Part shown: positions 6,583 through 28,630 of the stretch, piece by piece
Layout: each line of letters begins with the position of its first letter
Position numbering within the stretch: position 1 is the stretch's first letter
Assembly: GCA_963752475.1 (NCBI GenBank)
Contig: CAVVYR010000007.1
Coordinates: 416,001 to 480,000 of the forward strand
DNA from: an uncultured Chloroflexia bacterium
GTDB lineage: Bacteria; Chloroflexota; Limnocylindria; Limnocylindrales; CSP1-4
Direction of reading: 5' to 3'
Length of the DNA stretch: 64,000 nucleotides
The notes under the pieces: generated by a model
The model's input: only the letters and a program-made list of their open reading frames with translations
Told to the model about the DNA's origin: nothing
Database searches by the model: none
Made by a program: the position numbers and the translations under genes

Positions 6583-9500
6583 ATGTACTCGACCAAGCGT
6601 CGTGGCAAGGGCACCGCGTTCCTTGCCGTCCTGCAGTCACTACTACTACTGACCGCGCTGGTGCTGGTGCCAGCATCAGCCATCGCCCAGGACGGCCACC
6701 ACTCCCAGGTCGACCTGGCCGAGGACATCGTCAAGGCCAACGCCGATCACCCCAAGGGCAGCCTCGGGGACCGCGGATTCAAGCTCCGCCTCTTCCCCCA
6801 GCAGCCCAAGGTCGCGGTCGGCGGCAAGGTCGTCGTGTCCGCCTGGGTCTGCCCCGGCTGGGACAAGACCCCCTTCGGCGGCCCCAAGGGTGACGGCAAG
6901 CCCGGTGGCGATGACACCTGCAAGCCGATCAAGGCCGAGTGGTCCGTCGAGGGCCCTGCCACGCTCGCCAACCACAAGGCCCTCAAGACCCGCCTCGTGC
7001 TCAATGCCGACGGTGCCGTCCGCCTCACGGCCGAAGTCGATGACCTCAAGCAGTCCACGAAGATCACCGTCAAGGGGACGGCCGCCAAGAACCGCGGCTC
7101 CGATGCCGCCGCGATCGTGAAGAAGGCCGCCCAGAAGGAGGCCAAGGCCGCCAAGGTCAAGGCCCAGAAGGCCGCCGCCAGGCAGGCCGCCGCCGAGCAG
7201 GCCGCGCCGCCGAGCAGGCCGCTGCCGAGCAGGCCGCTGCTGCCCAGGCCGCTGCTGCTGCTGCCAAGCCGGCCGCCCCCGCCGCCGAGCCCGCGCAGGT
7301 CGCCTCTCCTGCCGCCGAGCCCGCCGTCGAAGCGCCCATCATCGAAGAGCCCGCCGCCGAGGAGCCCGCCCAGGCCCCGGTGGAGGAATCCGTCCCGGCC
7401 GAGGAGCCCGCTGAAGAGCCGGCCGCCGAGGAGCCCGAGCCGCCGAGGAGCCTGCGGCCGAGGAGCCCAATGCCGACGAGCCCGAGGCCGAGGAGCCCGC
7501 TGCCGAGGAGCCCATGCCGAAGAGCCCGGCCGCCGAGGAGCCCGCGGCCGAGGAGCCCGCTGAGGCCCCGGCCGCCGAGGAGCCCGCTGCCGAGGAGCCC
7601 GCTGAAGAGCCCGAGCCGACGAGCAGCCCGCTGCCGAGGAGCCTGCTGAAGAGCCCGCCGCCGAGGAGGAGCAGCCCGCTGCCGAGGAGCCAGCGAGCCC
7701 GCCGCCGAGGAGGAGAGCCCGCCGCCGAGGAGGAGAGCCCGCCGCCGAGGAGGAGCAGCCCGCCGCCGAGGAGGAGAGCCCGCCGCCGAGGAGGAGCAGC
7801 CCGCCGCCGAGGAGGAGAGCCCGCCGCCGAGGAGGAGCAGCCCGCCGCCGAGGAGGAGAGCCCGCCGCCGAGGAGGAGCAGCCCGCCGCCGAAGAGCCTG
7901 CCGCCGAGGAGCCTGCTGCCGAGGAGCCCATCGAGGCCCCGGCTGAAGAGCCCGCTGCCGAGGCCCCGGCCGCTGAAGAGCCCGCCGCCAAGGAGCCCAA
8001 GGCTCAGGCTGCAGCTCAGGCCGTCACCGTCCAGGCTGATCCCCTGCAGATCGGAACGGCTGGCCTCACCAGCCTCGCCATCGACGCCAAGCTCGCGAAC
8101 CACACGAGCGCAGAGAACAACGGCGGAAGCAACGCCGAGAACTGCATCCGCTATACCCCGATCCCGAACGCGGCCCCCAACCAGACCGAGACGACCTGGG
8201 TCGATGCCAACAGCAACCCCGACACCGCCTGGACCGCCCACGGTCGGTACACGGTCCCGAACCAGCAGGGATCGGTCTGCCCACCGGACCCGTCCATCAA
8301 TCTGGACGAGCAAAGCTCCATCGGTTTCACGCCCGCTGCCTATGCGCCCAACGATGTCCCCACGGGTAGCCCCTTCCTGCTCGGTAGGTTCACGCATGAC
8401 AACAACGTCATCACCGGTGTTGACAGCCTTTACACGGGTGACCTGAAGATTCGCCTCACCGCCGACAACACGAGCACCCTCACCTACAACTGGGGCTTCA
8501 ACGAGACAAACAACTACCCCAACAGTGGCGTCTGCGAGTTCGGCAACGAGCCGTGCGCGGACAAGACCTGGTTCAACAACACCATCGACGACACGACCAT
8601 CACTAGTGGTGGTATCCCGTACCAGTTGGTGATCATCGGCTTCAGGAGCGACGTTGATGGCAGCTGCCCCGGGACGCCGTCCGGCACTCCCACCGACAAC
8701 TGGTGGACCGCCGAGGACACGACCAGCTACGGCTGCCTGTACGCCGAGCTGACAGAGAAGCGCGCCCTCAAGATCGTCAAGGAGGTCCTCGGCGCTCCGG
8801 CGCCCAACAAGGGCTTCCCCTTCACCTCCAGCAGTTCCTTCGGCACCGACAGCCCGTGGGACAGCAGCAACGGTGGCAAGACGCTCAAGGACGACGGAGT
8901 CAACGACTCCTGGGGTCCGAAGACGTTCCTCTCGACCGAAGAGGACGTGACGATCACCGAGAGCATCCCGAATGGCTGGATCCTCAAGGACGTCGTCTGC
9001 TCGGACAAGTACACGACCTACACCCAGGGCACCCACTACACCCTGAATAAGGGTACGGGCAAGCTCGTCCTGAACAACATCCCCGAGTCCAACAAGGCAG
9101 ACGCGCTGATGGTGACGTGTACCTTCAAGAACGAGCGCGATAGTGGCACCATCATCGTCAAGAAGAAGGCCGTCCCGGACGACGGTACGCCCTTCACGTT
9201 CGATCCGTCATGGAACAGCGAGCCGAACTTCAACCTGTTCCACAACGACAGCAAGACCTTCACCGACCTGCCCGCTGGCGTGGAGTACTCGGTCTCCGAG
9301 ATCAACATCCCCACCCACTGGGTCCTGACCAAGGTGGAGTGCAAGCAGGGCGAGCAGGTCCTGGCCGACGAGAACGGCGAGGCCTTCGAGCTGAAGCCCG
9401 GCGAGACCGTCACCTGCACCTTCACCAACAAGAAGGCCAGCATCGACATCGAGAAGGCCACCAACGGCGCCGACGCCGACAGCCCCACCGGACCCTTCAT

Positions 9501-12500
9501 CGCGGTGGGCAACCCGGTCAACTGGACCTATGAGGTCGAGAACACCGGCAACGTCGCGCTCACCAACGTGTCCGTCACCGACGACCAGGGTGTGACGGTG
9601 ACCTGCCCGCAGGACACGCTCGCCGCCGGCGAGTCGATGACCTGCACCGCCAACGGCACGGCCACGGCCGGCCAGTACGACAACCTCGGCACCGCCACCG
9701 GCACCCCGCCGGCCGGCCCGCCCGTCGACGATGAGTACCGAGCCACTACTTCGGCGCGGACGCCAGCATCGACATCGAGAAGGCCACCAACGGCGCCGAC
9801 GCCGACAGCCCCACCGGACCCTTCATCGCGGTGGGTGACCCGGTCAACTGGACCTATGAGGTCGAGAACACCGGCAACGTCGCGCTCACCAACGTGTCCG
9901 TCACCGACGACCAGGGTGTGACGGTGACCTGCCCGCAGGACACGCTCGCCGCCGGCGAGTCGATGACCTGCACCGCCAACGGCACGGCCACGGCCGGCCA
10001 GTACGACAACCTCGGCACCGCCACCGGCACCCCGCCGGCCGGCCCGCCCGTCGACGATGAGGATCCGAGCCACTACTTCGGCGCGGACGCCAGCATCGAC
10101 ATCGAGAAGGCCACCAACGGCGCCGACGCCGACAGCCCCACCGGACCCTTCATCGCGGTGGGTGACCCGGTCAACTGGACCTATGAGGTCGAGAACACCG
10201 GCAACGTCGCGCTCACCAACGTGTCCGTCACCGACGACCAGGGTGTGACGGTGACCTGCCCGCAGGACACGCTCGCCGCCGGCGAGTCGATGACCTGCAC
10301 CGCCAACGGCACGGCCACGGCCGGCCAGTACGACAACCTCGGCACCGCCACCGGCACCCCGCCGGCCGGCCCGCCCGTCGACGATGAGGATCCGAGCCAC
10401 TACTTCGGCGCGGACGCCAGCATCGACATCGAGAAGGCCACCAACGGCGCCGACGCCGACAGCCCCACCGGACCCTTCATCGCGGTGGGTGACCCGGTCA
10501 ACTGGGAATACGAGGTCACCAACGACGGCAACGTCGACCTCACCGACGTGGAGGTCACCGACAGCGACGTGGCCGCCAGCGCCATCGACTGCGGTGCTCC
10601 CGACAACGACAACGTCATCGAGAGCCTGGCGGTGGGCCAGACCGTGACCTGTGAGGCCACGGGCACGGCCACGGCCGGCCAGTACGACAACCTCGGCACC
10701 GCCACCGGCACCCCGCCGGCCGGCCCGCCCGTCGACGATGAGGATCCGAGCCACTACTTCGGCGCGGACGCCAGCATCGACATCGAGAAGGCCACCAACG
10801 GCGCCGACGCCGACAGCCCCACCGGACCCTTCATCGCGGTGGGTGCCACGGTCACCTGGGAATACGAGGTCACCAACGACGGCAACGTCGACCTCACCGA
10901 CGTGGAGGTCACCGACAGCGACGTGGCCGCCAGCGCCATCGACTGCGGTGCTCCCGACAACGACAACGTCATCGAGAGCCTGGCGGTGGGCCAGACCGTG
11001 ACCTGTGAGGCCACGGGCACGGCCACGGCCGGCCAGTACGACAACCTCGGCACCGCCACCGGCACCCCGCCGGCCGGCCCGCCCGTCGACGATGAGGATC
11101 CGAGCCACTACTTCGGCGCGGACGCCAGCATCGACATCGAGAAGGCCACCAACGGCGCCGACGCCGACAGCCCCACCGGACCCTTCATCGCGGTGGGCAA
11201 CCCGGTCAACTGGACCTATGAGGTCGAGAACACCGGCAACGTCGCGCTCACCAACGTGTCCGTCACCGACGACCAGGGTGTGACGGTGACCTGCCCGCAG
11301 GACACGCTCGCCGCCGGCGAGTCGATGACCTGCACCGCCAACGGCACGGCCACGGCCGGCCAGTACGACAACCTCGGCACCGCCACCGGCACCCCGCCGG
11401 CCGGCCCGCCCGTCGACGATGAGGATCCGAGCCACTACTTCGGCGCGGACGCCAGCATCGACATCGAGAAGGCCACCAACGGCGCCGACGCCGACAGCCC
11501 CACCGGACCCTTCATCGCGGTGGGTGACCCGGTCAACTGGACCTATGAGGTCGAGAACACCGGCAACGTCGCGCTCACCAACGTGTCCGTCACCGACGAC
11601 CAGGGTGTGACGGTGACCTGCCCGCAGGACACGCTCGCCGCCGGCGAGTCGATGACCTGCACCGCCAACGGCACGGCCACGGCCGGCCAGTACGACAACC
11701 TCGGCACCGCCACCGGCACCCCGCCGGCCGGCCCGCCCGTCGACGATGAGGATCCGAGCCACTACTTCGGCGCGGACGCCAGCATCGACATCGAGAAGGC
11801 CACCAACGGCGCCGACGCCGACAGCCCCACCGGACCCTTCATCGCGGTGGGTGACCCGGTCAACTGGGAATACGAGGTCACCAACGACGGCAACGTCGAC
11901 CTCACCGACGTGGAGGTCACCGACAGCGACGTGGCCGCCAGCGCCATCGACTGCGGTGCTCCCGACAACGACAACGTCATCGAGAGCCTGGCGGTGGGCC
12001 AGACCGTGACCTGTGAGGCCACGGGCACGGCCACGGCCGGCCAGTACGACAACCTCGGCACCGCCACCGGCACCCCGCCGGCCGGCCCGCCCGTCGACGA
12101 TGAGGATCCGAGCCACTACTTCGGCGCGGACGCCAGCATCGACATCGAGAAGGCCACCAACGGCGCCGACGCCGACAGCCCCACCGGACCCTTCATCGCG
12201 GTGGGCAACCCGGTCAACTGGACCTATGAGGTCGAGAACACCGGCAACGTCGCGCTCACCAACGTGTCCGTCACCGACGACCAGGGTGTGACGGTGACCT
12301 GCCCGCAGGACACGCTCGCCGCCGGCGAGTCGATGACCTGCACCGCCAACGGCACGGCCACGGCCGGCCAGTACGACAACCTCGGCACCGCCACCGGCAC
12401 CCCGCCGGCCGGCCCGCCCGTCGACGATGAGGATCCGAGCCACTACTTCGGCGCGGACGCCAGCATCGACATCGAGAAGGCCACCAACGGCGCCGACGCC

Positions 12501-14682
12501 GACAGCCCCACCGGACCCTTCATCGCGGTGGGTGACCCGGTCAACTGGACCTATGAGGTCGAGAACACCGGCAACGTCGCGCTCACCAACGTGTCCGTCA
12601 CCGACGACCAGGGTGTGACGGTGACCTGCCCGCAGGACACGCTCGCCGCCGGCGAGTCGATGACCTGCACCGCCAACGGCACGGCCACGGCCGGCCAGTA
12701 CGACAACCTCGGCACCGCCACCGGCACCCCGCCGGCCGGCCCGCCCGTCGACGATGAGGATCCGAGCCACTACTTCGGCGCGGACGCCAGCATCGACATC
12801 GAGAAGGCCACCAACGGCGCCGACGCCGACAGCCCCACCGGACCCTTCATCGCGGTGGGCAGCACCGTCAACTGGACCTATGAGGTCGAGAACACCGGCA
12901 ACGTCGCGCTCACCAACGTGTCCGTCACCGACGACCAGGGTGTGACGGTGACCTGCCCGCAGGACACGCTCGCCGCCGGCGAGTCGATGACCTGCACCGC
13001 CAACGGCACGGCCACGGCCGGCCAGTACGACAACCTCGGCACCGCCACCGGCACCCCGCCGGCCGGCCCGCCCGTCGACGATGAGGATCCGAGCCACTAC
13101 TTCGGCGCGGACGCCAGCATCGACATCGAGAAGGCCACCAACGGCGCCGACGCCGACAGCCCCACCGGACCCTTCATCGCGGTGGGTGACCCGGTCAACT
13201 GGACCTATGAGGTCGAGAACACCGGCAACGTCGCGCTCACCAACGTGTCCGTCACCGACGACCAGGGTGTGACGGTGACCTGCCCGCAGGACACGCTCGC
13301 CGCCGGCGAGTCGATGACCTGCACCGCCAACGGCACGGCCACGGCCGGCCAGTACGACAACCTCGGCACCGCCACCGGCACCCCGCCGGCCGGCCCGCCC
13401 GTCGACGATGACGATCCGAGCCACTACTTCGGCGCGGACGCCAGCATCGACATCGAGAAGGCCACCAACGGCGCCGACGCCGACAGCCCCACCGGACCCT
13501 TCATCGCGGTGGGCAGCACCGTCAACTGGGCCTACATCGTCACCAACACCGGCAACGTCGCCCTGAGCGACGTGACCGTCACCGACGACGAGCTGGCCCC
13601 CACTGATATCGTGTGCGACGGCTCCGACGACAACGTCATCCCGTCCCTGTTGCCGGGCGCCAGTGCGAACTGCGCGGCCACCGGCACCGCCGTGGCCGGC
13701 CAGTACGACAACATCGGCACCGCCACCGGCACCCCGCCGGCCGGCGACCCGCCGACCGATGACCGATCCGAGCCACTACTTCGGTGCCGTGCCCGGCATC
13801 GACATCCAGAAGGCCACCAACGGCCAGGACGCCGACGCCCCGACCGGACCGGTCGTGGCCGTGGGTGATCCCATCACCTGGACCTACGTGGTCACCAACA
13901 CCGGCAACGTCGCCCTGAGCGACGTGACCGTCACCGACAACAAGCTTGCCGCCAGCGCCATCGCGTGCGACGGCAGTGGCACCAACGTCATCGCGTCCCT
14001 GGCGCCGAAGGCGTCCGTGACCTGCAAGGCCACGGGTACCGCCGTCGCGGGCCAGTACGCCAACACGGGCTCCGCCACCGGCACGCCGCCGGAGGGTGAG
14101 CCACCGGCGGACTCCGACCCGAGCCACTACTTCGGTGCCGCTCCCGGCATCGACATCGAGAAGTCCACCAATGGCTTCGACGCCGACAACCCGACGGGTC
14201 CGGGCGTGCAGGTCGGTGAGTCCATCACCTGGACCTATGAGGTCACCAACACCGGCAACGTCACGCTCACCGGCGTGACCGTCACCGACGACCAGGGTGT
14301 GGTGGTCTCCTGTCCGAAGAGCACGCTCGTCGCCGGCGAGTCGATGACCTGCACCGCGAGCGGTACGGCCACGGCCGGCCAGTACGTCAACACCGGCACC
14401 GCCACCGGCACCCCGCCGGTCGGCGTGGCCCCGAGCGACAGCGACAAGAGCCACTACTTCGGCATCGAGGTCGAGGTCGAGTCCACCCCGCTCCCGACCG
14501 AGTCCCTGAAGCCCACGGACATGCTGTTCACGACCGACACCATCGGTCCGGCCGATGACGGCGATCCCATGGGTGCCCTGTTCAACTGGGCCCTCTGGCT
14601 CGCGCTCAGTGCGCTGCTCATCGTGGGCACCGCCGCGATCATCCGCCGCGAGCGCTACGCGGAGGTCAAGACCCGCCGCTAG
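6583..14682 (+). CDS. Giant surface protein copy 1 (frameshifted as assembled): signal, basic N-module, Glu/Pro/Ala linker, THxN/choice-of-anchor-like domain, 15 DUF11-like Ig repeats, C-terminal TM anchor
   Basis: Joins ORFs 6583-7563, 8626-9921, 9831-13868 and 13663-14682; colinear with copy 2; indels near 7205-7870, 9736 and 13764. Confidence 0.8.
9436..14460 (+). repeat. Intragenic array of 327-bp (A) and 354-bp (B) units: AAABBAABAAAA plus 3 divergent terminal units
   Basis: Unit starts GCCAGCATCGACATCGAGAAG at 9436, 9762, 10089, 10416, 10770, 11124, 11451, 11778, 12132, 12459, 12786, 13113, 13440. Confidence 0.95.
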
Positions 14683-15071: not shown

Positions 15072-18000
15072 ATGTACTCGACCAAGCGTCGTGGCAAGGG
15101 CACCGCGTTCCTTGCCGTCCTGCAGTCACTACTACTACTGACCGCGCTGGTGCTGGTGCCAGCATCAGCCATCGCCCAGGACGGCCACCACTCCCAGGTC
15201 GACCTGGCCGAGGACATCGTCAAGGCCAACGCCGATCACCCCAAGGGCAGCCTCGGGGACCGCGGATTCAAGCTCCGCCTGTTCCCCCAGCAGCCCAAGG
15301 TCGCGGTCGGCGGCAAGGTCGTCGTGTCCGCCTGGGTCTGCCCCGGCTGGGACAAGACCCCCTTCGGCGGCCCCAAGGGTGACGGCAAGCCCGGTGGCGA
15401 TGACACCTGCAAGCCGATCAAGGCCGAGTGGTCCGTCGAGGGCCCTGCCACGCTCGCCAACCACAAGGCCCTCAAGACCCGCCTCGTGCTCAATGCCGAC
15501 GGTGCCGTCCGCCTCACGGCCGAAGTCGATGACCTCAAGCAGTCCACGAAGATCACCGTCAAGGGGACGGCCGCCAAGAACCGCGGCTCCGATGCCGCCG
15601 CGATCGTGAAGAAGGCCGCCCAGAAGGAGGCCAAGGCCGCCAAGGTCAAGGCCCAGAAGGCCGCCGCCAGGCAGGCCGCCGCCAGGCAGGCCGCTGCCGC
15701 CGAGCAGGCCGCTGCTGAGCAGGCCGCTGCTGCCCAGGCCGCTGCTGCTGCTGCCAAGCCGGCCGCCCCCGCCGCCGAGCCCGCGCAGGTCGCCTCTCCT
15801 GCTGCCGAGCCCGCCGTCGAAGCACCCATCAACGAAGAGCCCGCCGCCGAGGAGCCCGCCCAGGCCCCGGTGGAGGACTCCGTCCCGGCCGAGGAGCCTG
15901 CTGAAGCGCCGGCCGCCGAAGAGCCCAAGAGCGAAGAGCCTGCGGCCGACGAGCCCAAGGCCGACGAGCCCAAGGCCGAAGAGCCTGCGGCCGAGGAGCC
16001 CAAGGCCGACGAGCCCAAGGCCGAAGAGCCTGCGGCCGAGGAGCCCGCAGAGGCCCCGGTGGAGGAATCTGTCCCTGAGGCTCCCGCCGAAGAGCCCAAG
16101 AACGAGCAGCCCGCCGCCGAGGAGGAGCAGCCCGCCGCCGAGGAGGAGCAGCCCGCCGCCGAGGAGAGCAGGGCCGCCGAGCAGCCCGCCGCCGAGGAGG
16201 AGCAGCCCGCCGCCGAGGAGGAGCAGCCCGCCGCCGAGGAGGAGCAGCCCGCCGCCGAGGAGGAGCAGCCCGCCGCCGAGGAGGAGCAGCCCGCCGCCGA
16301 GGAGGAGCAGCCCGCCGCCGAGGAGGAGCAGCCCGCCGCCGAGGAGGAGCAGCCCGCCGCCGAGGAGGAGCAGCCCGCCGCCGAGGAGGAGCAGCCCGCC
16401 GCCGAGGAGGAGCAGCCCGCCGCCGAGGAGGAGCAGCCCGCCGCCGAGGAGGAGCAGCCCGCCGCCGAGGAGGAGCAGCCCGCCGCCGAAGAGCCTGCCG
16501 CCGAGGAGCCTGCTGCCGAGGAGCCCATCGAGGCCCCGGCTGAAGAGCCCGCTGCCGAGGCCCCGGCCGCTGAAGAGCCCGCCGCCAAGGAGCCCAAGGC
16601 TCAGGCTGCAGCTCAGGCCGTCACCGTCCAGGCTGATCCCCTGCAGATCGGAACGGCTGGCCTCACCAGCCTCGCCATCGACGCCAAGCTCGCGAACCAC
16701 ACGAGCGCAGAGAACAACGGCGGAAGCAACGCCGAGAACTGCATCCGCTATACCCCGATCCCGAACGCGGCCCCCAACCAGACCGAGACGACCTGGGTCG
16801 ATGCCAACAGCAACCCCGACACCGCCTGGACCGCCCACGGTCGGTACACGGTCCCGAACCAGCAGGGATCGGTCTGCCCACCGGACCCGTCCATCAATCT
16901 GGACGAGCAAAGCTCCATCGGTTTCACGCCCGCTGCCTATGCGCCCAACGATGTCCCCACGGGTAGCCCCTTCCTGCTCGGTAGGTTCACGCATGACAAC
17001 AACGTCATCACCGGTGTTGACAGCCTTTACACGGGTGACCTGAAGATTCGCCTCACCGCCGACAACACGAGCACCCTCACCTACAACTGGGGCTTCAACG
17101 AGACAAACAACTACCCCAACAGTGGCGTCTGCGAGTTCGGCAACGAGCCGTGCGCGGACAAGACCTGGTTCAACAACACCATCGACGACACGACCATCAC
17201 TAGTGGTGGTATCCCGTACCAGTTGGTGATCATCGGCTTCAGGAGCGACGTTGATGGCAGCTGCCCCGGGACGCCGTCCGGCACTCCCACCGACAACTGG
17301 TGGACCGCCGAGGACACGACCAGCTACGGCTGCCTGTACGCCGAGCTGACAGAGAAGCGCGCCCTCAAGATCGTCAAGGAGGTCCTCGGCGCTCCGGCGC
17401 CCAACAAGGGCTTCCCCTTCACCTCCAGCAGTTCCTTCGGCACCGACAGCCCGTGGGACAGCAGCAACGGTGGCAAGACGCTCAAGGACGACGGAGTCAA
17501 CGACTCCTGGGGTCCGAAGACGTTCCTCTCGACCGAAGAGGACGTGACGATCACCGAGAGCATCCCGAATGGCTGGATCCTCAAGGACGTCGTCTGCTCG
17601 GACAAGTACACGACCTACACCCAGGGCACCCACTACACCCTGAATAAGGGTACGGGCAAGCTCGTCCTGAACAACATCCCCGAGTCCAACAAGGCAGACG
17701 CGCTGATGGTGACGTGTACCTTCAAGAACGAGCGCGATAGTGGCACCATCATCGTCAAGAAGAAGGCCGTCCCGGACGACGGTACGCCCTTCACGTTCGA
17801 TCCGTCATGGAACAGCGAGCCGAACTTCAACCTGTTCCACAACGACAGCAAGACCTTCACCGACCTGCCCGCTGGCGTGGAGTACTCGGTCTCCGAGATC
17901 AACATCCCCACCCACTGGGTCCTGACCAAGGTGGAGTGCAAGCAGGGCGAGCAGGTCCTGGCCGACGAGAACGGCGAGGCCTTCGAGCTGAAGCCCGGCG

Positions 18001-21000
18001 AGACCGTCACCTGCACCTTCACCAACAAGAAGGCCAGCATCGACATCGAGAAGGCCACCAACGGCGCCGACGCCGACAGCCCCACCGGACCCTTCATCGC
18101 GGTGGGCAACCCGGTCAACTGGACCTATGAGGTCGAGAACACCGGCAACGTCGCGCTCACCAACGTGTCCGTCACCGACGACCAGGGTGTGACGGTGACC
18201 TGCCCGCAGGACACGCTCGCCGCCGGCGAGTCGATGACCTGCACCGCCAACGGCACGGCCACGGCCGGCCAGTACGACAACCTCGGCACCGCCACCGGCA
18301 CCCCGCCGGCCGGCCCGCCCGTCGACGATGAGGACCCGAGCCACTACTTCGGCGCGGACGCCAGCATCGACATCGAGAAGGCCACCAACGGCGCCGACGC
18401 CGACAGCCCCACCGGACCCTTCATCGCGGTGGGTGACCCGGTCAACTGGACCTATGAGGTCGAGAACACCGGCAACGTCGCGCTCACCAACGTGTCCGTC
18501 ACCGACGACCAGGGTGTGACGGTGACCTGCCCGCAGGACACGCTCGCCGCCGGCGAGTCGATGACCTGCACCGCCAACGGCACGGCCACGGCCGGCCAGT
18601 ACGACAACCTCGGCACCGCCACCGGCACCCCGCCGGCCGGCCCGCCCGTCGACGATGAGGATCCGAGCCACTACTTCGGCGCGGACGCCAGCATCGACAT
18701 CGAGAAGGCCACCAACGGCGCCGACGCCGACAGCCCCACCGGACCCTTCATCGCGGTGGGTGACCCGGTCAACTGGACCTATGAGGTCGAGAACACCGGC
18801 AACGTCGCGCTCACCAACGTGTCCGTCACCGACGACCAGGGTGTGACGGTGACCTGCCCGCAGGACACGCTCGCCGCCGGCGAGTCGATGACCTGCACCG
18901 CCAACGGCACGGCCACGGCCGGCCAGTACGACAACCTCGGCACCGCCACCGGCACCCCGCCGGCCGGCCCGCCCGTCGACGATGAGGATCCGAGCCACTA
19001 CTTCGGCGCGGACGCCAGCATCGACATCGAGAAGGCCACCAACGGCGCCGACGCCGACAGCCCCACCGGACCCTTCATCGCGGTGGGTGACCCGGTCAAC
19101 TGGACCTATGAGGTCGAGAACACCGGCAACGTCGCGCTCACCAACGTGTCCGTCACCGACGACCAGGGTGTGACGGTGACCTGCCCGCAGGACACGCTCG
19201 CCGCCGGCGAGTCGATGACCTGCACCGCCAACGGCACGGCCACGGCCGGCCAGTACGACAACCTCGGCACCGCCACCGGCACCCCGCCGGCCGGCCCGCC
19301 CGTCGACGATGAGGATCCGAGCCACTACTTCGGCGCGGACGCCAGCATCGACATCGAGAAGGCCACCAACGGCGCCGACGCCGACAGCCCCACCGGACCC
19401 TTCATCGCGGTGGGTGACCCGGTCAACTGGACCTATGAGGTCGAGAACACCGGCAACGTCGCGCTCACCAACGTGTCCGTCACCGACGACCAGGGTGTGA
19501 CGGTGACCTGCCCGCAGGACACGCTCGCCGCCGGCGAGTCGATGACCTGCACCGCCAACGGCACGGCCACGGCCGGCCAGTACGACAACCTCGGCACCGC
19601 CACCGGCACCCCGCCGGCCGGCCCGCCCGTCGACGATGAGGATCCGAGCCACTACTTCGGCGCGGACGCCAGCATCGACATCGAGAAGGCCACCAACGGC
19701 GCCGACGCCGACAGCCCCACCGGACCCTTCATCGCGGTGGGTGACCCGGTCAACTGGACCTATGAGGTCGAGAACACCGGCAACGTCGCGCTCACCAACG
19801 TGTCCGTCACCGACGACCAGGGTGTGACGGTGACCTGCCCGCAGGACACGCTCGCCGCCGGCGAGTCGATGACCTGCACCGCCAACGGCACGGCCACGGC
19901 CGGCCAGTACGACAACCTCGGCACCGCCACCGGCACCCCGCCGGCCGGCCCGCCCGTCGACGATGAGGATCCGAGCCACTACTTCGGCGCGGACGCCAGC
20001 ATCGACATCGAGAAGTCCACCAACGGCAGTGACGCCGACACGCCCGACCGGACCCTTCATCGCCGTCGGCAGCACCGTCAACTGGGCCTACATCGTCACC
20101 AACACCGGCAACGTCGTCCTGAACGACGTGACCGTCACCGACGACAAGCTCGCCGACAGCGCCATCGACTGCGGCGACGGCACCAACGTCATCGCGTCCC
20201 TGCTGCCGGGCGCCAGTGCGAACTGCACGGCCACCGGCACCGCCGAGGCCGGCCAGTACGCCAACACCGGCTCCGTCATCGGCACCCCGCCCGGCGAGGG
20301 CGAGCCGCCGACCGACACCGATCCGAGCCACTACTTCGGTGCCGTGCCCGGCATCGACATCGAGAAGGCCACCAACGGCCAGGACGCCGACGCCCCGACC
20401 GGACCGGTCGTGGCCGTGGGTGATCCCATCACCTGGACCTACGTGGTCACCAACACCGGCAACGTCGCCCTGAGCGACGTGACCGTCACCGACAACAAGC
20501 TCGCCGCCAGCGCCATCGTGTGCGACGGCAGTGGCACCAACGTCATCGCGTCCCTGGCGCCGAACGCGTCCGTGACCTGCACGGCCACGGGCACCGCCGT
20601 CGCGGGCCAGTACGCCAACACGGGCTCGGCCACCGGCACGCCGCCCGAGGGCGAGCCAGCCGGCGGACTCCGACCCGAGCCACTACTTCGGTGCCGCTCC
20701 CGGCATCGACATCGAGAAGCTCACCAACGGCTTCGACGCCGACAACCCGACCGGTCCGGGCGTGCAGGTCGGTGAGCCCATCACCTGGACCTATGAGGTC
20801 ACCAACACCGGCAACGTCACGCTCACCGGCGTGACCGTCACCGACGACCAGGGTGTGGTGGTCTCCTGTCCGAAGAGCACGCTCGTCGCCGGCGAATCGA
20901 TGACCTGTACCGCGAGCGGTACGGCCACGGCCGGCCAGTACGTCAACACCGGCACCGCCACCGGCACCCCGCCGGTCGGCGTGGCCCCGAGCGACAGCGA

Positions 21001-21238
21001 CAAGAGCCACTACTTCGGCATCGAGGTCGAGGTCGAGTCCACCCCGCTCCCGACCGAGTCCCTGAAGCCCACGGACATGCTGTTCACGACCGACACCATC
21101 GGTCCGGCCGATGACGGCGATCCCATGGGTGCCCTGTTCAACTGGGCCCTCTGGCTCGCGCTCAGCGCGCTGCTCATCGTGGGCACCGCCGCGATCATCC
21201 GCCGCGAGCGCTACGCGGAGGTCAAGACCCGCCGCTAG
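15072..21238 (+). CDS. Giant surface protein copy 2 with 9 DUF11-like repeats and C-terminal sorting/TM anchor (indels near 20045 and 20660)
   Basis: 1783-aa ORF plus 19963-20775 and 20762-21238; ends LKPTD...WALWLALSALLIVGTAAIIRRERYAEVKTRR. Confidence 0.85.
16102..16490 (+). repeat. 21-bp tandem repeat encoding EEEQPAA
   Basis: GAGGAGGAGCAGCCCGCCGCC repeated about 14 times perfectly, plus a few flanking units. Confidence 0.95.
18033..21015 (+). repeat. Intragenic array: six 327-bp A units plus 3 divergent units
   Basis: Unit starts at 18033, 18360, 18687, 19014, 19341, 19668, 19995. Confidence 0.95.
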
Positions 21239-21269: not shown

Positions 21270-21305
21270 ACGAAGGCCGGGCTCGGAGAGGGGCCCGGCC
21301 TTCGT
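21270..21305. terminator. Probable bidirectional hairpin terminator between surface protein and sortase-like gene
   Basis: Same hairpin as 14714-14749, lying between convergent genes. Confidence 0.75.
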
Positions 21306-21338: not shown

Positions 21339-22207
21339 CTACGGGCGGCGGACGATGTAGACGGCTACGACGGTGGCGCCGAGAAGGATCGCGCCACTGC
21401 CGAGTACCAGCGCCATGGCGTCGAGCTCCTCTTGGGGCTCGGTCACCGGCGCGGCCGTCGCCGCTGCCTGCCGGTTCGCGTTGTTGCTCGCGTTCCTGTT
21501 CTTGTTGCCCTTGGCCTTCGCTGTCGGTGCCGGGGGCGGCTGCCAGCAGGCACGTGGCTTGGGCCTCCGGCCGTGGCTCGTCGGTCCACGCAGCATCGAT
21601 GAGCCGGCCCGCGACCATCAGGCGTGGCGAGGCGCCGGTCGTGCCGGTGCTCGTCTGGAGCACGACCCGTTGCTGGCGCTCATTCGGTCGGTCCGCGATG
21701 TCGTAGTCGAAGGCCACGTCGACCTCGGAGATGCGGTAGGTCAGGAGTCGGCCGTCGCGCAGCTGCAGCTTGATGAGCTTGCCCATCAGCTCGGTCCGCC
21801 CGGACGCGAAGTAGCTCTCGGTCAGGGGCAGGAGCATGCCCGGTTGGGCGTGACCGTAGAGCCAGGCCGTCCCGGGCTGCCCCGGCAGCACCAGCTCCTG
21901 CTCCCTGGAGGTCAGGTACTGGGCCACATCGCAGAGCGGATAGCCGGCGGGGTTGCCGGCGACCTTCCGCCCTTCCCACACGACCGGCAGGTCGATGTCG
22001 AAGTAGGGGACTCGTACGCGTACTGGCCGCGAGCCCTCGTCGAGAGGCACCGGCCGGGCCGTGGGAGTGGTGGGGTCTTCCTGGGCGGCCGCATCGGATC
22101 CCGGGAGTCCGAGCGTCAGCATGCACGGCAAGACCGAGCGTGGACACGACCGTGAGGATCCGCCGCGCGCTCGACGCTGTGGCTGCTGACCGAGGGAAGG
22201 TGAGCAT
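21339..22207 (-). CDS. Sortase-fold protein (LQTS instead of LxTC) with C-terminal TM; two apparent frameshifts
   Basis: VRVRVPYFDIDLPVV...PGQPGTAWLYGHA...LLTYRISEV...RVVLQTSTG...PRLMVAG matches sortase strand order; N-term in 22207 frame, C-term in 21339-21596 frame. Confidence 0.75.
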
Positions 22208-22420
22208 CGCCAGACGCTAGCACTCCATCGAGGTTCGCTCACCGGGCCGGCTGACGGTCAGATGCCGGTACTTCCGCCTTCTGGCTGCTCCGGTCTGTTC
22301 GCGTAGGGCAGTCTCGGTCGGCAGGCGGCCTCGCGCCGCCGCGTGGTGACAACTGTCAACGCTCGCTATACTCACCGCGGACCCGCGTCAAGTCGTCGTG
22401 GCGCAGCGGAGGGAGATCGC

Positions 22421-23500
22421 TTGCAGGACCCTGCCCAGCGGATGGATACGCGTCCGCGCGTGGCAGTCATCGAGGATGATGCCGCGGTCAGACGTGTCCT
22501 GAGCCGCATCCTTGATGACGCCGGCTATGCCGTCATCGCCGCCCCCGACGGTGAGCTCGGCCTGCGCGTGGTCAAGGAGCACCACCCGGACATGCTCATC
22601 CTCGACCTGACCTTGCCACGCATGGACGGCCTCGAGATCTGCCGCCGGCTGCGTGCCGACAGCCGCACCGTGGCGCTGCCCATCATCGTCCTTACCGCGC
22701 ACACTTCGACCAGCGACATGGTGGCCGCGCTCGATGCCGGCGCCGACGACTTCGTGACCAAGCCCTTCCAGCAGGTCGAGCTCCTGGCGCGCCTGCGCAG
22801 CTCGTTCCGCACGCGTGAGGTCATCCGCCGCATGGAGCAGGCGCACGACATCGTCGTGGCCCTGGCCAACGCGGTCGAAGCCAAGGACCTCGGGCTCAAG
22901 GATCACTGCCGCTACCTGGCCTACCGCTCCGCGCGCCTCGCCGCCTACGTCGGCCTGCGGGACGGCGAGCTGGAGGGCGTGGCCTACGGCGCGCTGCTCC
23001 ACGACATCGGCAAGATCGGCATCAGCGAGCACGTGTTGCACAAGCCCGGGCCGCTCACCGACGACGAGTTCCGCGTCATGCGCGAACACCCCGAGATCGG
23101 CGAGCGCATCTGCGATCCGTTGCGCATGTCGCGCGACTTCACACCCATCATCCGCCACCACCACGAGCGCTGGGACGGTACGGGCTACCCCGACGGCCTG
23201 AAGGGGGAGGCCATCCCGCTCGGAGCCCGTATCGTGGCCCTCGCCGATGCCTTCGACGCCATCGTCCGCGGCCGCCCGTACCGCGCCGCCCGCACGGTCG
23301 AGGAAGCGTTCGATGAGCTGCGCAAGCACTCGGGGGGCCAGTTCGACCCGGGCCTGGTTCCGCTCTTCATCGAAGAGACGGACCGTGATGGCGCCGGCAT
23401 CGCCCCCAGCGTGGAGTTGCCGCGCGTGGCCCTGTTGGCCCAGGAAGCGCCGATCGTGACGGGCGCGCCAAGTGGAGCCGCGCCCGCCCGCGTCGCCTGA
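22421..23500 (+). CDS. REC + HD-GYP response regulator (putative c-di-GMP phosphodiesterase, RpfG-like)
   Basis: Receiver EDD/LD/KPF; HDIGKIG; HHHERWDGTGYPDGL; start TTG 22421 or ATG 22442. Confidence 0.9.
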   Translation: MQDPAQRMDTRPRVAVIEDDAAVRRVLSRILDDAGYAVIAAPDGELGLRVVKEHHPDMLILDLTLPRMDGLEICRRLRADSRTVALPIIVLTAHTSTSDMVAALDAGADDFVTKPFQQVELLARLRSSFRTREVIRRMEQAHDIVVALANAVEAKDLGLKDHCRYLAYRSARLAAYVGLRDGELEGVAYGALLHDIGKIGISEHVLHKPGPLTDDEFRVMREHPEIGERICDPLRMSRDFTPIIRHHHERWDGTGYPDGLKGEAIPLGARIVALADAFDAIVRGRPYRAARTVEEAFDELRKHSGGQFDPGLVPLFIEETDRDGAGIAPSVELPRVALLAQEAPIVTGAPSGAAPARVA

Positions 23501-24311: not shown

Positions 24312-27300
24312 CGGACTTGCCACTCGCCGTGCCGGTCGCACGGAGTTTGACCACGTGCTTGCCCTTCGAGACATTGCGCACGTAGACGATGCGCCGGTCA
24401 TCGGGCTCGGCTGGCGTAGAGGTCGATGGTGTCGACGTGCTTGCCGTCCACGATGACCTTGACGCGACCACCGGTCGGCCCACGGCGGACGACGACCGCG
24501 AACTGCTGGCCCTTGAACGAGACCTTCGCCTGTGCGCCCCGTCGAGGACGTCCGTGCGAGGCGTCTTTCCGAGCGCGTCCTTGTTCCTCGTCGCCTTCCA
24601 CGAACCGCGGAGCTTCACGTTCTTCGAGCTGCGACGGCAGATCGATGGTCCGCAGCTTGGGGCTGATCGACTTCCTGCTGGTCGTTTCCGGCGACGGTCC
24701 TTCGCGGGGCCGTGGACCGAGCAGCCCGCTCGGGCCACGGGGGCGCCGGCGGTCACGAGAGGACCCTTGCCGGTCTTGGTGGCCATGACCTTGCGGCCAC
24801 AGATGACTCGGACCGCCGCGTTCTTCAGCCCTGAGCGCCCGTCCTTGGCGCTGATCGTGGCCTTGATCGGCACGCGCTTGCCGGACGCGGCCACGCGGCC
24901 GCCCTGGCGGATGCTGAGGCGCGGGCGGGTCAGCTTCGGCTTCGTCTTGTCGAGCTTGATGCCGTCGCGCAGGATCGGCGACTTGACCTTGTTCGGAGCG
25001 CGCAGCTGCATGCGCACGTCGTAGTTGCCCTGGCGCCGGCCGAGCTTGACGTTGAACCGCTTCTTGTAGGGCATCCACTTGGTGAACTTGCCCTTGCCGA
25101 CGGCGTAGCGCACCTGGACCCCGTCGAATCCGCGCAGGTCGGCCTGCACGGTCCTCGATCCCGGTCCAGGCCGCGCCCTTCTTGAGCTTCATCTGCCGCG
25201 AGAGCTCCAGGTTCAGCTGGCCCAGGCCGGCCGAGTACACGTTCCCGTCGAGCTTGACGCCGCCGTCGAACCTGGCGAGGCCCCACTGCCAGAACGTCCA
25301 GTCGCTCCAGCCGTTCGGCAGGATCATCGTGTCGCACTCCCAGCAGGCGACCCAGAGCGGGTAGGTGCCGAAGCCGCCCGGCGCGCCGACCACCTTCTCC
25401 CACATGTAGCGGCTGGTGTAGATCATCGGATACCGGCCGGTCTGCCGATAGAGCTCGTCGAGCATGGCGTGGAGGCGTGCCTTGGCCTGGGCCTTGTTGG
25501 GGGTCCCGAGCGACGTGAGCGTCTCGACGTCGACCACCAGCGGCAGCAGCCGGTTGAGCCCGCTGGTCTTGCGCACGATCGACAGGAAGTGCTGCGCCTG
25601 TTTCGTGCCGTCGACCCGGTAGTCGAAGAAGTGGTAGGCCCCGGCGAGCAGGCCTGCAGCGCGTGCGTCGGAGGTGTGCTGCTGGAACGTGTTGTCGACG
25701 AACGACGTGCCCTGGGTCGCCTTGGAGAAGACGAAGCGCTGGTCCTGGGCTCGGAGCGCCTTGAAGTCGGGCAGGCCGTTCCAGTGGCTCACGTCCAGCC
25801 CCAGGATGCCATCCGGGGTGGACCAGGGCGGCGGCTCCGGCGTCGGCGTCGGCGTCGGTTCTGGCTCGACGATGTAGCCATCTCCGTCGGGTCCGGTGTC
25901 GTCGCCGGGCGGGGTGTCCTCGACGTCCGCGACGCCGAAGGCAGCCGCCAAGTCGAGACGCCCGATGGCCATGTTCGTGGCAGCGGCGCTCGTCGAGAGC
26001 CGGCCGGCAACGTTGTTCGAGGTGATCCCGTCGGCGATCAGCAGGGCGGCAGCGCCGGCGACCTGAGCCGCGGCGGCCGAGGTGCCCCTGATCGTGCGGT
26101 TGGTGCCGCCGGGGTTCAGCGCCGTGATGTCCACGCCCGGCGCCGCGATGTAGGCGCTTGGACCGTCGTCGCTCCAGAGCGCCACCACGTCGTCCTTCCG
26201 CGTGGCGGCGACGCCGATGACGCCGGGGTACGCCGCCGGATAGGTCGGCGTGGTCACACCTTCGTTGCCCACGGACGCCACCACGACGATGCCGGCGGCC
26301 ATCGCGAGGTCGATCTGGTCCTTGAGTGCAGTCGACCTGTTCGGACCGCTGAACGCCATGAGGATGACGTCGACGTTCGCTGCCATGGCTGTGCCGATCG
26401 CGGCGATGATGTCCGCGTCGTAGCCCACACCGTCGGCACCGATAGCCGTGATCGGCAGGACCGAGACATTGGTCCAGGCGACACCGGCAATGTCCCGTGC
26501 GTTGTTCGTGTTCGCGGCCATGATGGTGGCCATCCACGTGCCGTGGCCGTGAGGGTCGCTGCTCGTACCGATAGCCTTGCCGGCAAGGTCCTCGAGCGCG
26601 GTATCGACGCCCGTGTCGATGATCGCCACAGTGGCGCTGCTACTGAATGTCTTGACTCCGTGCAGGGCCTCCCAGCCGATGTGTGGGAGGTGCCACTGGT
26701 TCTCGTAGAGCGGGTCGTTGGAAGCAGCGTTGACGGTCCGGGCGTAGTTGCGATCGACACTCCTGACGGCGGGATCGGCCTTGAGGCGATCGATGACCTT
26801 GGCGCGGTCCTTCCTGGGGACGTCAACGACCTGCATGTCGAGCCGGCCGATGGCCTTGTCGTTGCCGGCTCCTGCGGTCGTGATGGCGCCTGCTCGCTTG
26901 GCGTTTCCGGTGCCGGACTTGAAAGTGACGATGTACTCGTCGGTCGGACCGAGGTCGGCTGTCGAGGGCGTGCTCTGAGGCTCCGGCGTAGGCTCGCCAC
27001 TGGGCTGCGGGGTCCCCGGCTCTGGCGTCGGCGCGGGCTGTGCTTCTGGGGTCGTCGTCACCGTTTCGACCACATCCGGCTCCTCCGACGGGTCGTCTTC
27101 GGGTTCGACGGTCCCCGATTCGATCGTGGGCTCCGGTTCGTCGGGCGCGGCCGACGCCACTTCCGGCTCGACCGACGCTTCGGGCGTGTCGGGACCGGCC
27201 GATGCCGCTTCCGGCTCGACCGTTTCGGTCACGGCTGCCGATGCCGTCGGCTTCGGCTCGTCGGGAACCGCTGGCACCTCGGTGCCTGGCGCCACGGCAG

Positions 27301-28174
27301 CGAGGCCTTCGTCGCCCGGTTCCTCGGTAGCGGGCTCTGCGGTGGTGGTCTCCTCGGCCAGGGGCTCCTCGCTCGGCTCCGCGGTCGGTCCTTCGGTTTC
27401 GGACTCCTCGGCCCTCGGCGTCTCGGCCGCAGGGTCCGTGCTGGGCTCCTCGGTCGCAGATGCCTCGGGCGCAGTCTCCACGGGTTCCTCAGCAGCGGGC
27501 TCCTTCGGCAGGGGCTCGTCAGCGGCCGGGGCGGCGGCAGCGGCAGCAGCTTCGGCGGTGCTCGCGGCCTTGGCGGCAGCGGCAGCGGCCTTGGCGGCCT
27601 GCTCGGCGGCGGCCTGCCTGGCGGCGGCCTTCTGGGCCTTGACCTTGGCGGCCTTGGCCTCCTTCTGGGCGGCCTTCTTCACGATCGCGGCGGCATCGGA
27701 GCCGCGGTTCTTGGCGGCCGTCTCCTTGACGGTGATCTTCGTGGACTGCTTGAGGTCATCGACTTCGGCCGTGAGGCGGACGGCACCGTCGGCATTGAGC
27801 ACGAGGCGGGTCTTGAGGGCCTTGTGGTTGGCGAGCGTGGCAGGGCCCTCGACGGACCACTCGGCCTTGATCGGCTTGCAGGTGTCATCGCCACCGGGCT
27901 TGCCGTCACCCTTGGGGCCGCCGAAGGGGGTCTTGTCCCAGCCGGGGCAGACCCAGGCGGACACGACGACCTTGCCGCCGACCGCGACCTTGGGCTGCTG
28001 GGGGAAGAGGCGGAGCTTGAATCCGCGGTCCCCGAGGCTGCCCTTGGGGTGATCGGCGTTGGCCTTGACGATGTCCTCGGCCAGGTCGACCTGGGAGTGG
28101 TGGCCGTCCTGGGCGAGCAGGGGCGCGAAGCCTGTGCTGCCTGCCACGAGGACGAGGGACACGAGCAGGGCCAT
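24258..28174 (-). CDS. Secreted multidomain protein: shared N-module, acidic linker, propeptide, S8 subtilase, GH25 muramidase, basic beta-rich C-terminal domains (frameshifted at 24.3-25.2 kb)
   Basis: IIDTGVD, HGHGT, GNEG, GTSAAA (S8); GLDVSHWN, KATQG, GAYHF, VDVE, IYTS, WQW (GH25); C-terminus reconstructed across frames to ...LDAIVVLDKRR*; start uncertain (up to 28477). Confidence 0.8.
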
Positions 28175-28630
28175 GAACGCGTGGACTCGCGGCGTACGCA
28201 GCCACCGCCGAGCCTCGCGCAAGCGGGAAGCCCGTCCTCGACCAACCTGCGGCGTCTCGATGTGAGTCCGATCAGGGGGTGCTCCGTGCGGCGTCTCGCC
28301 GGTGCCTTCGCCACGGAGCGCCTGGTGCGCCAAGGCCACATCGGAGGCTCGGGGCACGCGCCGACCCGAGGCAGGCTGAAGCGGAGCCTCGGAGGCGTGG
28401 GACAGCGAGCGCGACACGCGCGTGGGCAACAAGCATGCCCTCCCTTCGGTCCAGCCCTCAGGGTCACGGCTGGGCATCGACGGCGAGTGTACGACACCTT
28501 GTCGTGTTTCACACCCGGCGTGCTCGTGGCTGCACCTGCCGCTGTTGACTCAGCGCACCAGCCGGATCAGCGCCGCGCGCAAGCACTCGCGCGCGGCGCG
28601 CCACTCCACGCACCGGCTACCATGCCTCTC

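Follow-up and report, generated by a model that had tools for sequence, protein, structure and literature searches.

A sortase-fold protein family of Limnocylindria with serine at the catalytic cysteine position, and a linked PTDML-type signal on neighboring surface proteins

The 64,000-nt window analyzed here (GCA_963752475.1, contig CAVVYR010000007.1, positions 416,001-480,000; coordinates below are those of the window) comes from an uncultured Chloroflexia bacterium of the class Limnocylindria, and carries on its minus strand a gene for a sortase-fold protein in which the codon expected for the catalytic Cys reads Ser. This Ser at the sortase Cys position is a family trait, neither a chance occurrence nor a base-call error. 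The role of the protein, which we tentatively take to be an enzyme acting at the cell surface, is weighed below against several alternatives. The gene and its immediate surroundings comprise the following features.

22126-22207, minus strand: N-terminal segment resembling a signal peptide or transmembrane helix, frame A, with its ATG at 22207 (open reading frame (ORF) list and translation; intact orthologues have a basic and then a hydrophobic stretch in the same frame)
22121-22130, minus strand: first frame break, at about 22125, where the window has one base more than its relatives (aligned DNA of G013 and G005; contig of run X2)
21601-22014, minus strand: sortase-fold domain, frame B (Pfam PF04203 match; AlphaFold2 (AF2) model of an 82%-identical orthologue; Foldseek)
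21931-21933, minus strand: Cys of PLCDVA, family position 99, proposed disulfide partner (conserved in homologues)
21850-21852, minus strand: His of LYGHA, aligned to the sortase catalytic His (hhalign)
21649-21651, minus strand: Ser codon AGC of VLQTS, at the sortase catalytic Cys position (hhalign)
21622-21624, minus strand: Arg of SPRLMV, aligned to the sortase catalytic Arg (hhalign; Lys in most family members)
21558-21567, minus strand: second frame break, at about 21560-21565, one extra base relative to relatives (DNA alignment; contig of run X6)
21546-21548, minus strand: Cys of the C-terminal tail motif PRACW, in frame C and at family position 227 (conserved in homologues)
21339-21419, minus strand: C-terminal transmembrane helix, RRP tail and stop (21339-21341), frame C (translation; same ending in intact orthologues)
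21270-21305, no strand: 13-bp perfect inverted repeat between two convergent genes (repeat search)

The initial annotation treated 21339-22207 as one ORF. This 869-nt interval holds no single ORF, being split over frames A, B and C, and the proposed gene model requires two frame changes. The ORF in frame B (22242 to 21235) contains YPLCDVAQY, LYGHA, VLQTS and SPRLMV, so that both the VLQTS motif with its AGC codon and the upstream Cys are where they had been reported. The C-terminal transmembrane helix is likewise present with its stop, although it lies in another frame than the domain. A secretion signal and a membrane anchor are thus obtained in the window only by reading across three frames, whereas intact homologues of the same genus (283-289 aa) have the signal peptide, the domain, the PRACW motif and the transmembrane helix in a single frame. 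The inverted repeat separates the frame-C stop from that of the convergent gene, and would be crossed by a frame-B reading. A scan for consensus promoters and terminators returned no promoter-like and no terminator-like site, and no T-tract terminator was found.

The domain is predicted to be a sortase barrel in which Ser, His and Arg align with the sortase triad. Residues 77-214 of the frame-B ORF match Pfam PF04203 at 27.6 bits (cut-off 26.6), and the match reaches 30.1 bits in the genome scan. The AF2 model of the intact orthologue of genome G013 (P0002, 82% identical), built on a 59-sequence alignment, has a mean predicted local distance difference test score (pLDDT) of 81, and residues 61-230 score above 90; His126 and Ser193 each close a strand, Arg202 opens one, and the tail around the second Cys has a pLDDT of ~92. 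Foldseek found 117 matches in the PDB at E<=0.001, the best 48 of which are all sortases; the top match is SrtE of T. fusca (7.2e-9), and the top matches have a probability of 1.00 and target-normalized template modeling scores of 0.5-0.68. With hhalign, the family profile aligns to the genome's own Cys sortase at 96.3% probability and 29% identity over 129 columns, pairing LQTS with LQTC, HAQPGMF with HAREGVL and SPRL with SPRF, and that canonical sortase (L001) itself matches solved sortases by sequence. The link from the family to solved sortases therefore rests on the fold search and on this chain through the genome's own sortase. A search of the ESM Atlas returned unnamed clusters only, plus one with 22% PF04203 members. 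The sortase register that the initial annotation had assigned to His and Arg is upheld by the hhalign alignment, and the sortase fold that it had supposed is supported by a confidently modeled barrel.

Homologues were found in 30 of 41 related genomes scanned with the domain of the window, and in the 20 loci from that scan (L003-L022) every translated match reads LQTS, next T or E, and next G. A search of 5.8 billion proteins gave 304 matches at E<=0.001 among 8000 scored candidates, and 241 cluster representatives matched at the same threshold when these were searched exhaustively. The few named matches are called "hypothetical protein", "sortase" or "Sortase domain", and come from Candidatus Limnocylindrales or from metagenome-assembled genomes of Chloroflexota. 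From these sources 267 sequences were collected, of which the 233 with full domain coverage were used for the following residue counts.

Nucleophile position: Ser 228, Cys 2, Gly 2, Pro 1
His position: His 230, Gln 2, Arg 1
Basic position: Lys 186, Arg 37, other 10 (Lys or Arg 223)
Thr before the Ser (Thr192): 233
Cys of PLCDVA: 232
Cys of the tail: 214 (17 of the remainder are gapped or truncated)

Conservation of LQTS among homologues, proposed in the initial annotation as a check on the Ser, is thus confirmed. At the DNA level, 23 distinct homologue contexts encode this residue by AGC (22) or AGT (1); the TCN codons that had been looked for are absent from these contexts, and no TGC occurs among the close homologues read. 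Contigs from public runs X2 and X6 span 21649-21651, with no difference there among the rows listed, which comprise all but 24. The two Gly variants (P0248 and P0249, both cluster representatives) are also the two sequences with Gln in place of His and keep both extra Cys; they are candidates for true pseudo-enzymes inside the family. Two other members, P0227 and P0239, have both extra Cys and, where canonical sortases have their nucleophile, a further Cys.

Across the main clade, the Cys of PLCDVA co-occurs with that of the tail (P-x-P-x-P-R-A-C), which in many members is the last or next-to-last residue. A sister clade, found in family f3 of the class (L051, L052, L054, L057, L058 and L059), has a domain free of Cys and devoid of the tail, and keeps His, Ser and Arg (LTLQTSTGP...PRFVVIA); some of its members have a lipobox-like N-terminus (LVLGC, AALTC). 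Relationships were examined in a FastTree phylogeny of 99 sequences and 145 columns, midpoint-rooted and built without an outgroup or tests of topology. In it, the Cys-free Ser forms cluster with canonical His-Cys-Arg sortases of the class (L047, L048 and L053) with a local support of 0.978, and the Cys-bearing P0227 is nested among Ser forms of the main clade with a support of 0.85. Both extra Cys are missing from the nine-tip clade that unites the Cys-free Ser forms with the canonical sortases, and from P0256. Drawn from this midpoint-rooted tree, the pattern suggests that Ser and Cys were exchanged at the nucleophile position at least twice.

The family is widespread in the class, as tallied below; G103, G141 and G147, which are unpublished, are among the genomes counted.

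Family of the window (f1): family match in 44 of 44 genomes
Second family (f3): 40 of 49 genomes
Third family (f4): 3 of 50 genomes
Whole class sample: 92 of 151 genomes

Within the genus of the window, Ser-family matches occur in 34 of 41 genomes and a canonical sortase in 9 of 41. In a neighboring family, streamlined 1.1-Mb genomes keep one copy. Architectures vary. A 567-aa paralogue in the genome of the window (L035 7254-8957; G000:C6:446253-447956) has a signal peptide, ~390 residues of W-T-G-like repeats and a Ser-sortase-like domain, and ends in PRACG; its repeats suggest a beta-propeller. In genome G125 (L060 382-1689, C1), two Ser-sortase-like domains stand in tandem, each with a PLCDVA-type Cys and a tail Cys.

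The surroundings of the gene offer a candidate substrate. In the window and in nine orthologous loci, the gene is convergent with one for a large surface protein, and on its other flank the same loci carry an HD-GYP response regulator, an acyltransferase and a GH25-domain protein. The response regulator (22343-23500, plus strand) is divergent from the sortase-like gene and is 85-94% identical across the genus, well above its neighbors. The features of the surface-protein genes in the window are listed here.

15072-21238, plus strand: giant surface protein with SpaA-like and DUF7507/DUF11 repeats, split over three frames, candidate substrate (ORF list, domain search)
21050-21235, plus strand: C-terminal signal of this convergent protein, with PTDML (21068-21082), a Gly/Asp-rich spacer, a transmembrane helix (~21134-21199) and the tail IRRERYAEVKTRR (P-T-D-x-L invariant in 10 aligned signals)
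14494-14676, plus strand: identical PTDML-type signal ending a second giant surface-protein gene (G000:C7:430494-430676)

The two giant genes (6583-14679 and 15072-21238, both on the plus strand) share their first 60 residues and are identical over their last 75, each being split across frames. Their common N-terminal region (AQDGHHSQVDLAEDIVK...) also opens an S8 protease/GH25 gene (24398-28477, minus strand). Within the gene nearer the sortase-like gene, a long Glu/Pro/Ala-rich stretch of low complexity with many EEQPAAE repeats lies at ~15700-16600 (plus strand), and near-identical 327-bp tandem repeats at ~18200-20100 (plus strand) correspond to DUF7507 units and produce spurious 63-aa ORFs at 18982, 19309 and 19636. 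Across loci, the surface proteins contain DUF7507/DUF11 repeats, SpaA-type prealbumin folds and, in one case, an isopeptide-forming fimbrial domain. These passenger parts vary widely, and the C-terminal signal is common to all: an invariant P-T-D-(M/T)-L, a spacer of ~20 residues rich in Gly and Asp, a transmembrane helix initiated by Trp and an IRR(E/Q)R...EV tail. This signal has no match among the NCBIfam models at E<=0.1. The genome of the window encodes four PTDML proteins, two in the window and the others at C6:758200-758370 and C4:206532-206711.

The signal is present in 19 of the 41 genus genomes, all 19 of which have a close homologue of the sortase-like protein (at least 50% identity) no more than 1 kb from a signal; it occurs in none of the 20 genus genomes that have no close homologue. 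Two genus genomes, 78% and 57% complete, have a homologue and no signal. As the 19 genomes are related to one another and share a syntenic locus, the signal and the Ser-sortase-like gene amount to one linked cassette and not to many independent associations. A canonical sortase was considered as the PTDML enzyme. Strong canonical matches (PF04203, E<=1e-10) occur in 9 of the 41 genus genomes and are absent from 12 of the 19 signal-bearing ones, which weakens that candidate; two of the 12 are 91% complete (3 and 10 contigs), and several of the 12 are incomplete. A simple genome scan recognized no LPXTG- or LAXTG-type signals. A complex prediction for the orthologue domain with the part of its neighbor's PTDML signal that precedes the transmembrane helix gave a score of 0.02 (mark 0.32), and speaks neither for nor against binding. 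PTDML as a substrate of the whole family was rejected, as the signal is found in none of 150 genomes outside the genus. The role of the family appears to be general, the long form with a C-terminal transmembrane helix appearing as a specialized offshoot tied to PTDML proteins.

Taken with the near-invariance of Ser, His and the basic residue, these data favor the serine-nucleophile reading that the initial annotation had listed among its options, though at somewhat less than an even chance; the few other residues at the nucleophile position are Cys in two sequences, Pro in one, and Gly in the two that have also lost His. The product of the locus would be a membrane-anchored, extracytoplasmic processing enzyme of the sortase type with a Ser-His-Arg/Lys center, in which a signal peptide precedes the sortase barrel and a Pro-rich tail leads from the barrel to the C-terminal transmembrane helix. 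Ser would act as the nucleophile, assisted by the basic residue, and an ester acyl-enzyme would form in place of the thioester of sortases. A disulfide between the Cys of PLCDVA and that of PRAC would staple the C-terminal tail to the barrel, and the long form could cleave or transfer proteins bearing the PTDML signal, much as a pilin-type sortase serves the pilins encoded beside it. The passenger domains of the neighbors, with their SpaA folds and isopeptide-forming fimbrial domain, are of the kind that sortases usually handle.

Comparison with known systems places the family close to class E/F sortases (PF04203, MEROPS C60; T. fusca SrtE, 9iok; S. coelicolor SrtE1, 5cuw), which are also extracytoplasmic and membrane-tethered, have an eight-stranded barrel, and carry His after strand 4, the nucleophile at the end of strand 7 in (T)LQT-x and, where strand 8 begins, a basic residue. 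Unlike them, the family has Ser for Cys, mostly Lys for Arg, two additional invariant Cys and a Pro-rich C-terminal tail, and where the substrates of other sortases carry LPXTG-type signals, its neighbors carry a tripartite signal with PTDML and a spacer of ~20 residues. The Cys sortase of the same genome (G000:C1:78325-78684) belongs to the same fold family and differs by TLQTC, by SPRF and by having neither extra Cys. Class C sortases, the pilin sortases of pilus islands, resemble the long form in lying beside genes for large surface proteins with SpaA folds and isopeptide domains. A signal peptide combined with a C-terminal transmembrane helix is the topology of class C sortases, and the family shares it; class C enzymes differ in having a Cys nucleophile and in the signal of their neighbors, which is LPXTG in place of PTDML and spacer. 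In the exosortase/PEP-CTERM, archaeosortase/PGF-CTERM and rhombosortase/GlyGly-CTERM systems, several proteins per genome likewise carry a motif, a transmembrane helix and a basic tail, with a candidate enzyme encoded beside some of them, but the folds of these enzymes are unrelated to the sortase fold found here. Rhombosortase provides a precedent for a serine enzyme in such sorting. In the chymotrypsin-fold PA clan, the same fold and catalytic geometry operate with either a Ser or a Cys nucleophile; the exchange seen here is comparable, both states occurring within one family and in sister clades.

A number of points weigh against an active enzyme and against its pairing with PTDML. For every member of the family, we infer catalysis from conservation and fold. 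In a site that evolved for Cys, the nucleophilicity of Ser falls short of that of a thiolate, and to our knowledge canonical sortases in which Cys has been replaced are regarded as inactive. SrtA C184S has been used as a "cys-less" scaffold, the passage in question leaving its activity unstated (PMC5578623). The basic residue is Lys, and not the Arg of sortases, in 186 of 233 sequences. The Pfam match is marginal, lying about one bit above the cut-off, the NCBIfam model of class F (NF033748) scores 17.6 bits against a cut-off of 166, and the family profile finds no match at E<=0.01 among PDB sequences. The proposed disulfide staple is likewise argued from conservation rather than from model coordinates. 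As for the substrate, the co-occurrence of gene and signal may represent one event inherited by related genomes, the signal is confined to a subset of one genus while the family extends over 92 of 151 genomes of the class, and the motif stands ~20 residues from the transmembrane helix, unlike in LPXTG signals. Moreover, the short forms, which end just after the tail Cys, adjoin MFS, ArsR and nuo genes and not surface proteins.

Several of these points lend themselves to a different reading, in which transpeptidase chemistry has been lost and the protein is a non-catalytic pseudo-sortase that would bind, chaperone or scaffold proteins of the surface or envelope, its former active-site residues being maintained for ligand binding. 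The catalytic Cys is indeed gone in 231 of 233 sequences and Arg is mostly replaced by Lys; no solved sortase is matched by sequence at E<=0.01; and fusions such as the beta-propeller-like N-terminal region of the paralogue and the tandem domains in G125 are common for binding domains. Pseudoenzymes, however, usually let the whole catalytic set drift, whereas in this family near-invariance holds for Ser, His, Thr192 and the basic residue alike, down to ~30% identity. The site, moreover, alternates with Cys only, or is lost along with His, a pattern of exchange that seems a better fit for a nucleophile site than for a decayed one, and a copy is retained even in 1.1-Mb streamlined genomes. We consider a pseudo-sortase somewhat less probable than a serine enzyme, and the main alternative to it.

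The serine-enzyme reading concerns the family; whether the copy in the window is functional depends on the two frame breaks. Both insertions could be real and the surface-protein cassette of this genome in decay. Two breaks fall within 870 nt, and the S8/GH25 gene and both giant surface-protein genes are broken as well, whereas the genes lying between them, for the response regulator and the acyltransferase, are intact. Among public runs, none was found to contain the exact strain (the best share of words is 0.25, and no RNA run is listed). Against this, at either frame junction the window is one base longer than the aligned DNA of G013 and G005, and contigs of relatives in public runs (~95% identity) have one base fewer at 22125 (X2) and at 21560 (X6); G005 also has an extra base, elsewhere than the two of the window. 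Within the assembly, 14-48 gaps open per 25 kb when redundant contigs are compared with the main ones, most of them 1 nt long (C23 against C8: 310 mismatches and 48 gaps). These redundant contigs (C23/C24 and C22 against C8; C2/C3/C15/C34 against C6), which are 98-99% identical to their counterparts with many single-base gaps, point to a strain mixture plus indel errors and fit the contamination estimate of 5.8%. Frame breaks also affect conserved neighbors in other assemblies of the genus, in different genes and including the conserved regulator (L024 and L027). Finally, the domain is 87% identical to that of G005 and 82% to that of G013, with many synonymous differences and no in-frame stop. 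Because relatives do not have the extra bases, the redundant contigs are rich in indels and neighboring long genes are likewise split across frames, the two single-base insertions are most likely errors of assembly, and a true pseudogene in this genome is improbable.

For the family at large, the initial annotation had also entertained an enzyme with a relocated Cys, in which the Cys of PLCDVA or PRAC would be the nucleophile and Ser a bystander. Both Cys are near-invariant (232 and 214 of 233 sequences) and the tail is confidently placed in the model (pLDDT ~92). The two are nevertheless gained or lost together, as in the nine-tip clade and P0256; as a conserved pair in a secreted protein, they are most simply explained as a unit, probably a disulfide stapling the C-terminal tail to the barrel. 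P0227 and P0239, for their part, hold a Cys at the canonical site in addition to both. Since the Cys-free clade retains Ser, His and Arg, a relocated-Cys mechanism cannot apply to that clade, and we regard it as very improbable for the others. That the Ser is a substitution error for a true TGC codon, which differs from AGC by a single base, has a negligible probability given AGC or AGT in all 23 homologue contexts from independent assemblies and Ser in 228 of 233 proteins of many sources.

Combining the serine-enzyme reading with the phylogeny and the neighborhood, Limnocylindria may possess active serine sortases, the first members of the sortase fold with a Ser nucleophile, in which Cys and Ser were exchanged more than once and whose long form is the dedicated enzyme of the PTDML signal on giant pilin-like adhesins; this broader proposal is slightly more tentative than that for the locus product itself. 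A search of openly available full texts found nothing on serine sortases, pseudo-sortases, sortases of Limnocylindria or Ser/Cys exchange in the sortase fold, and the titles and abstracts of sortase reviews describe sortases uniformly as cysteine transpeptidases.

Sortases are treated as cysteine transpeptidases without exception, and serve both as drug targets and as a standard tool for protein ligation. Should the family prove inactive, it would constitute a clear case of a conserved pseudo-sortase, likewise undescribed in the literature searched. If the serine-enzyme reading is true, the sortase fold would support an oxygen nucleophile in a large natural clade, and would offer engineering a source of oxidation-insensitive enzymes with ester intermediates. 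The PTDML-type signal would add to the known repertoire a sorting signal absent from NCBIfam, and motif-based sortase predictors that require Cys would be missing a class-wide envelope system of abundant freshwater Chloroflexota.

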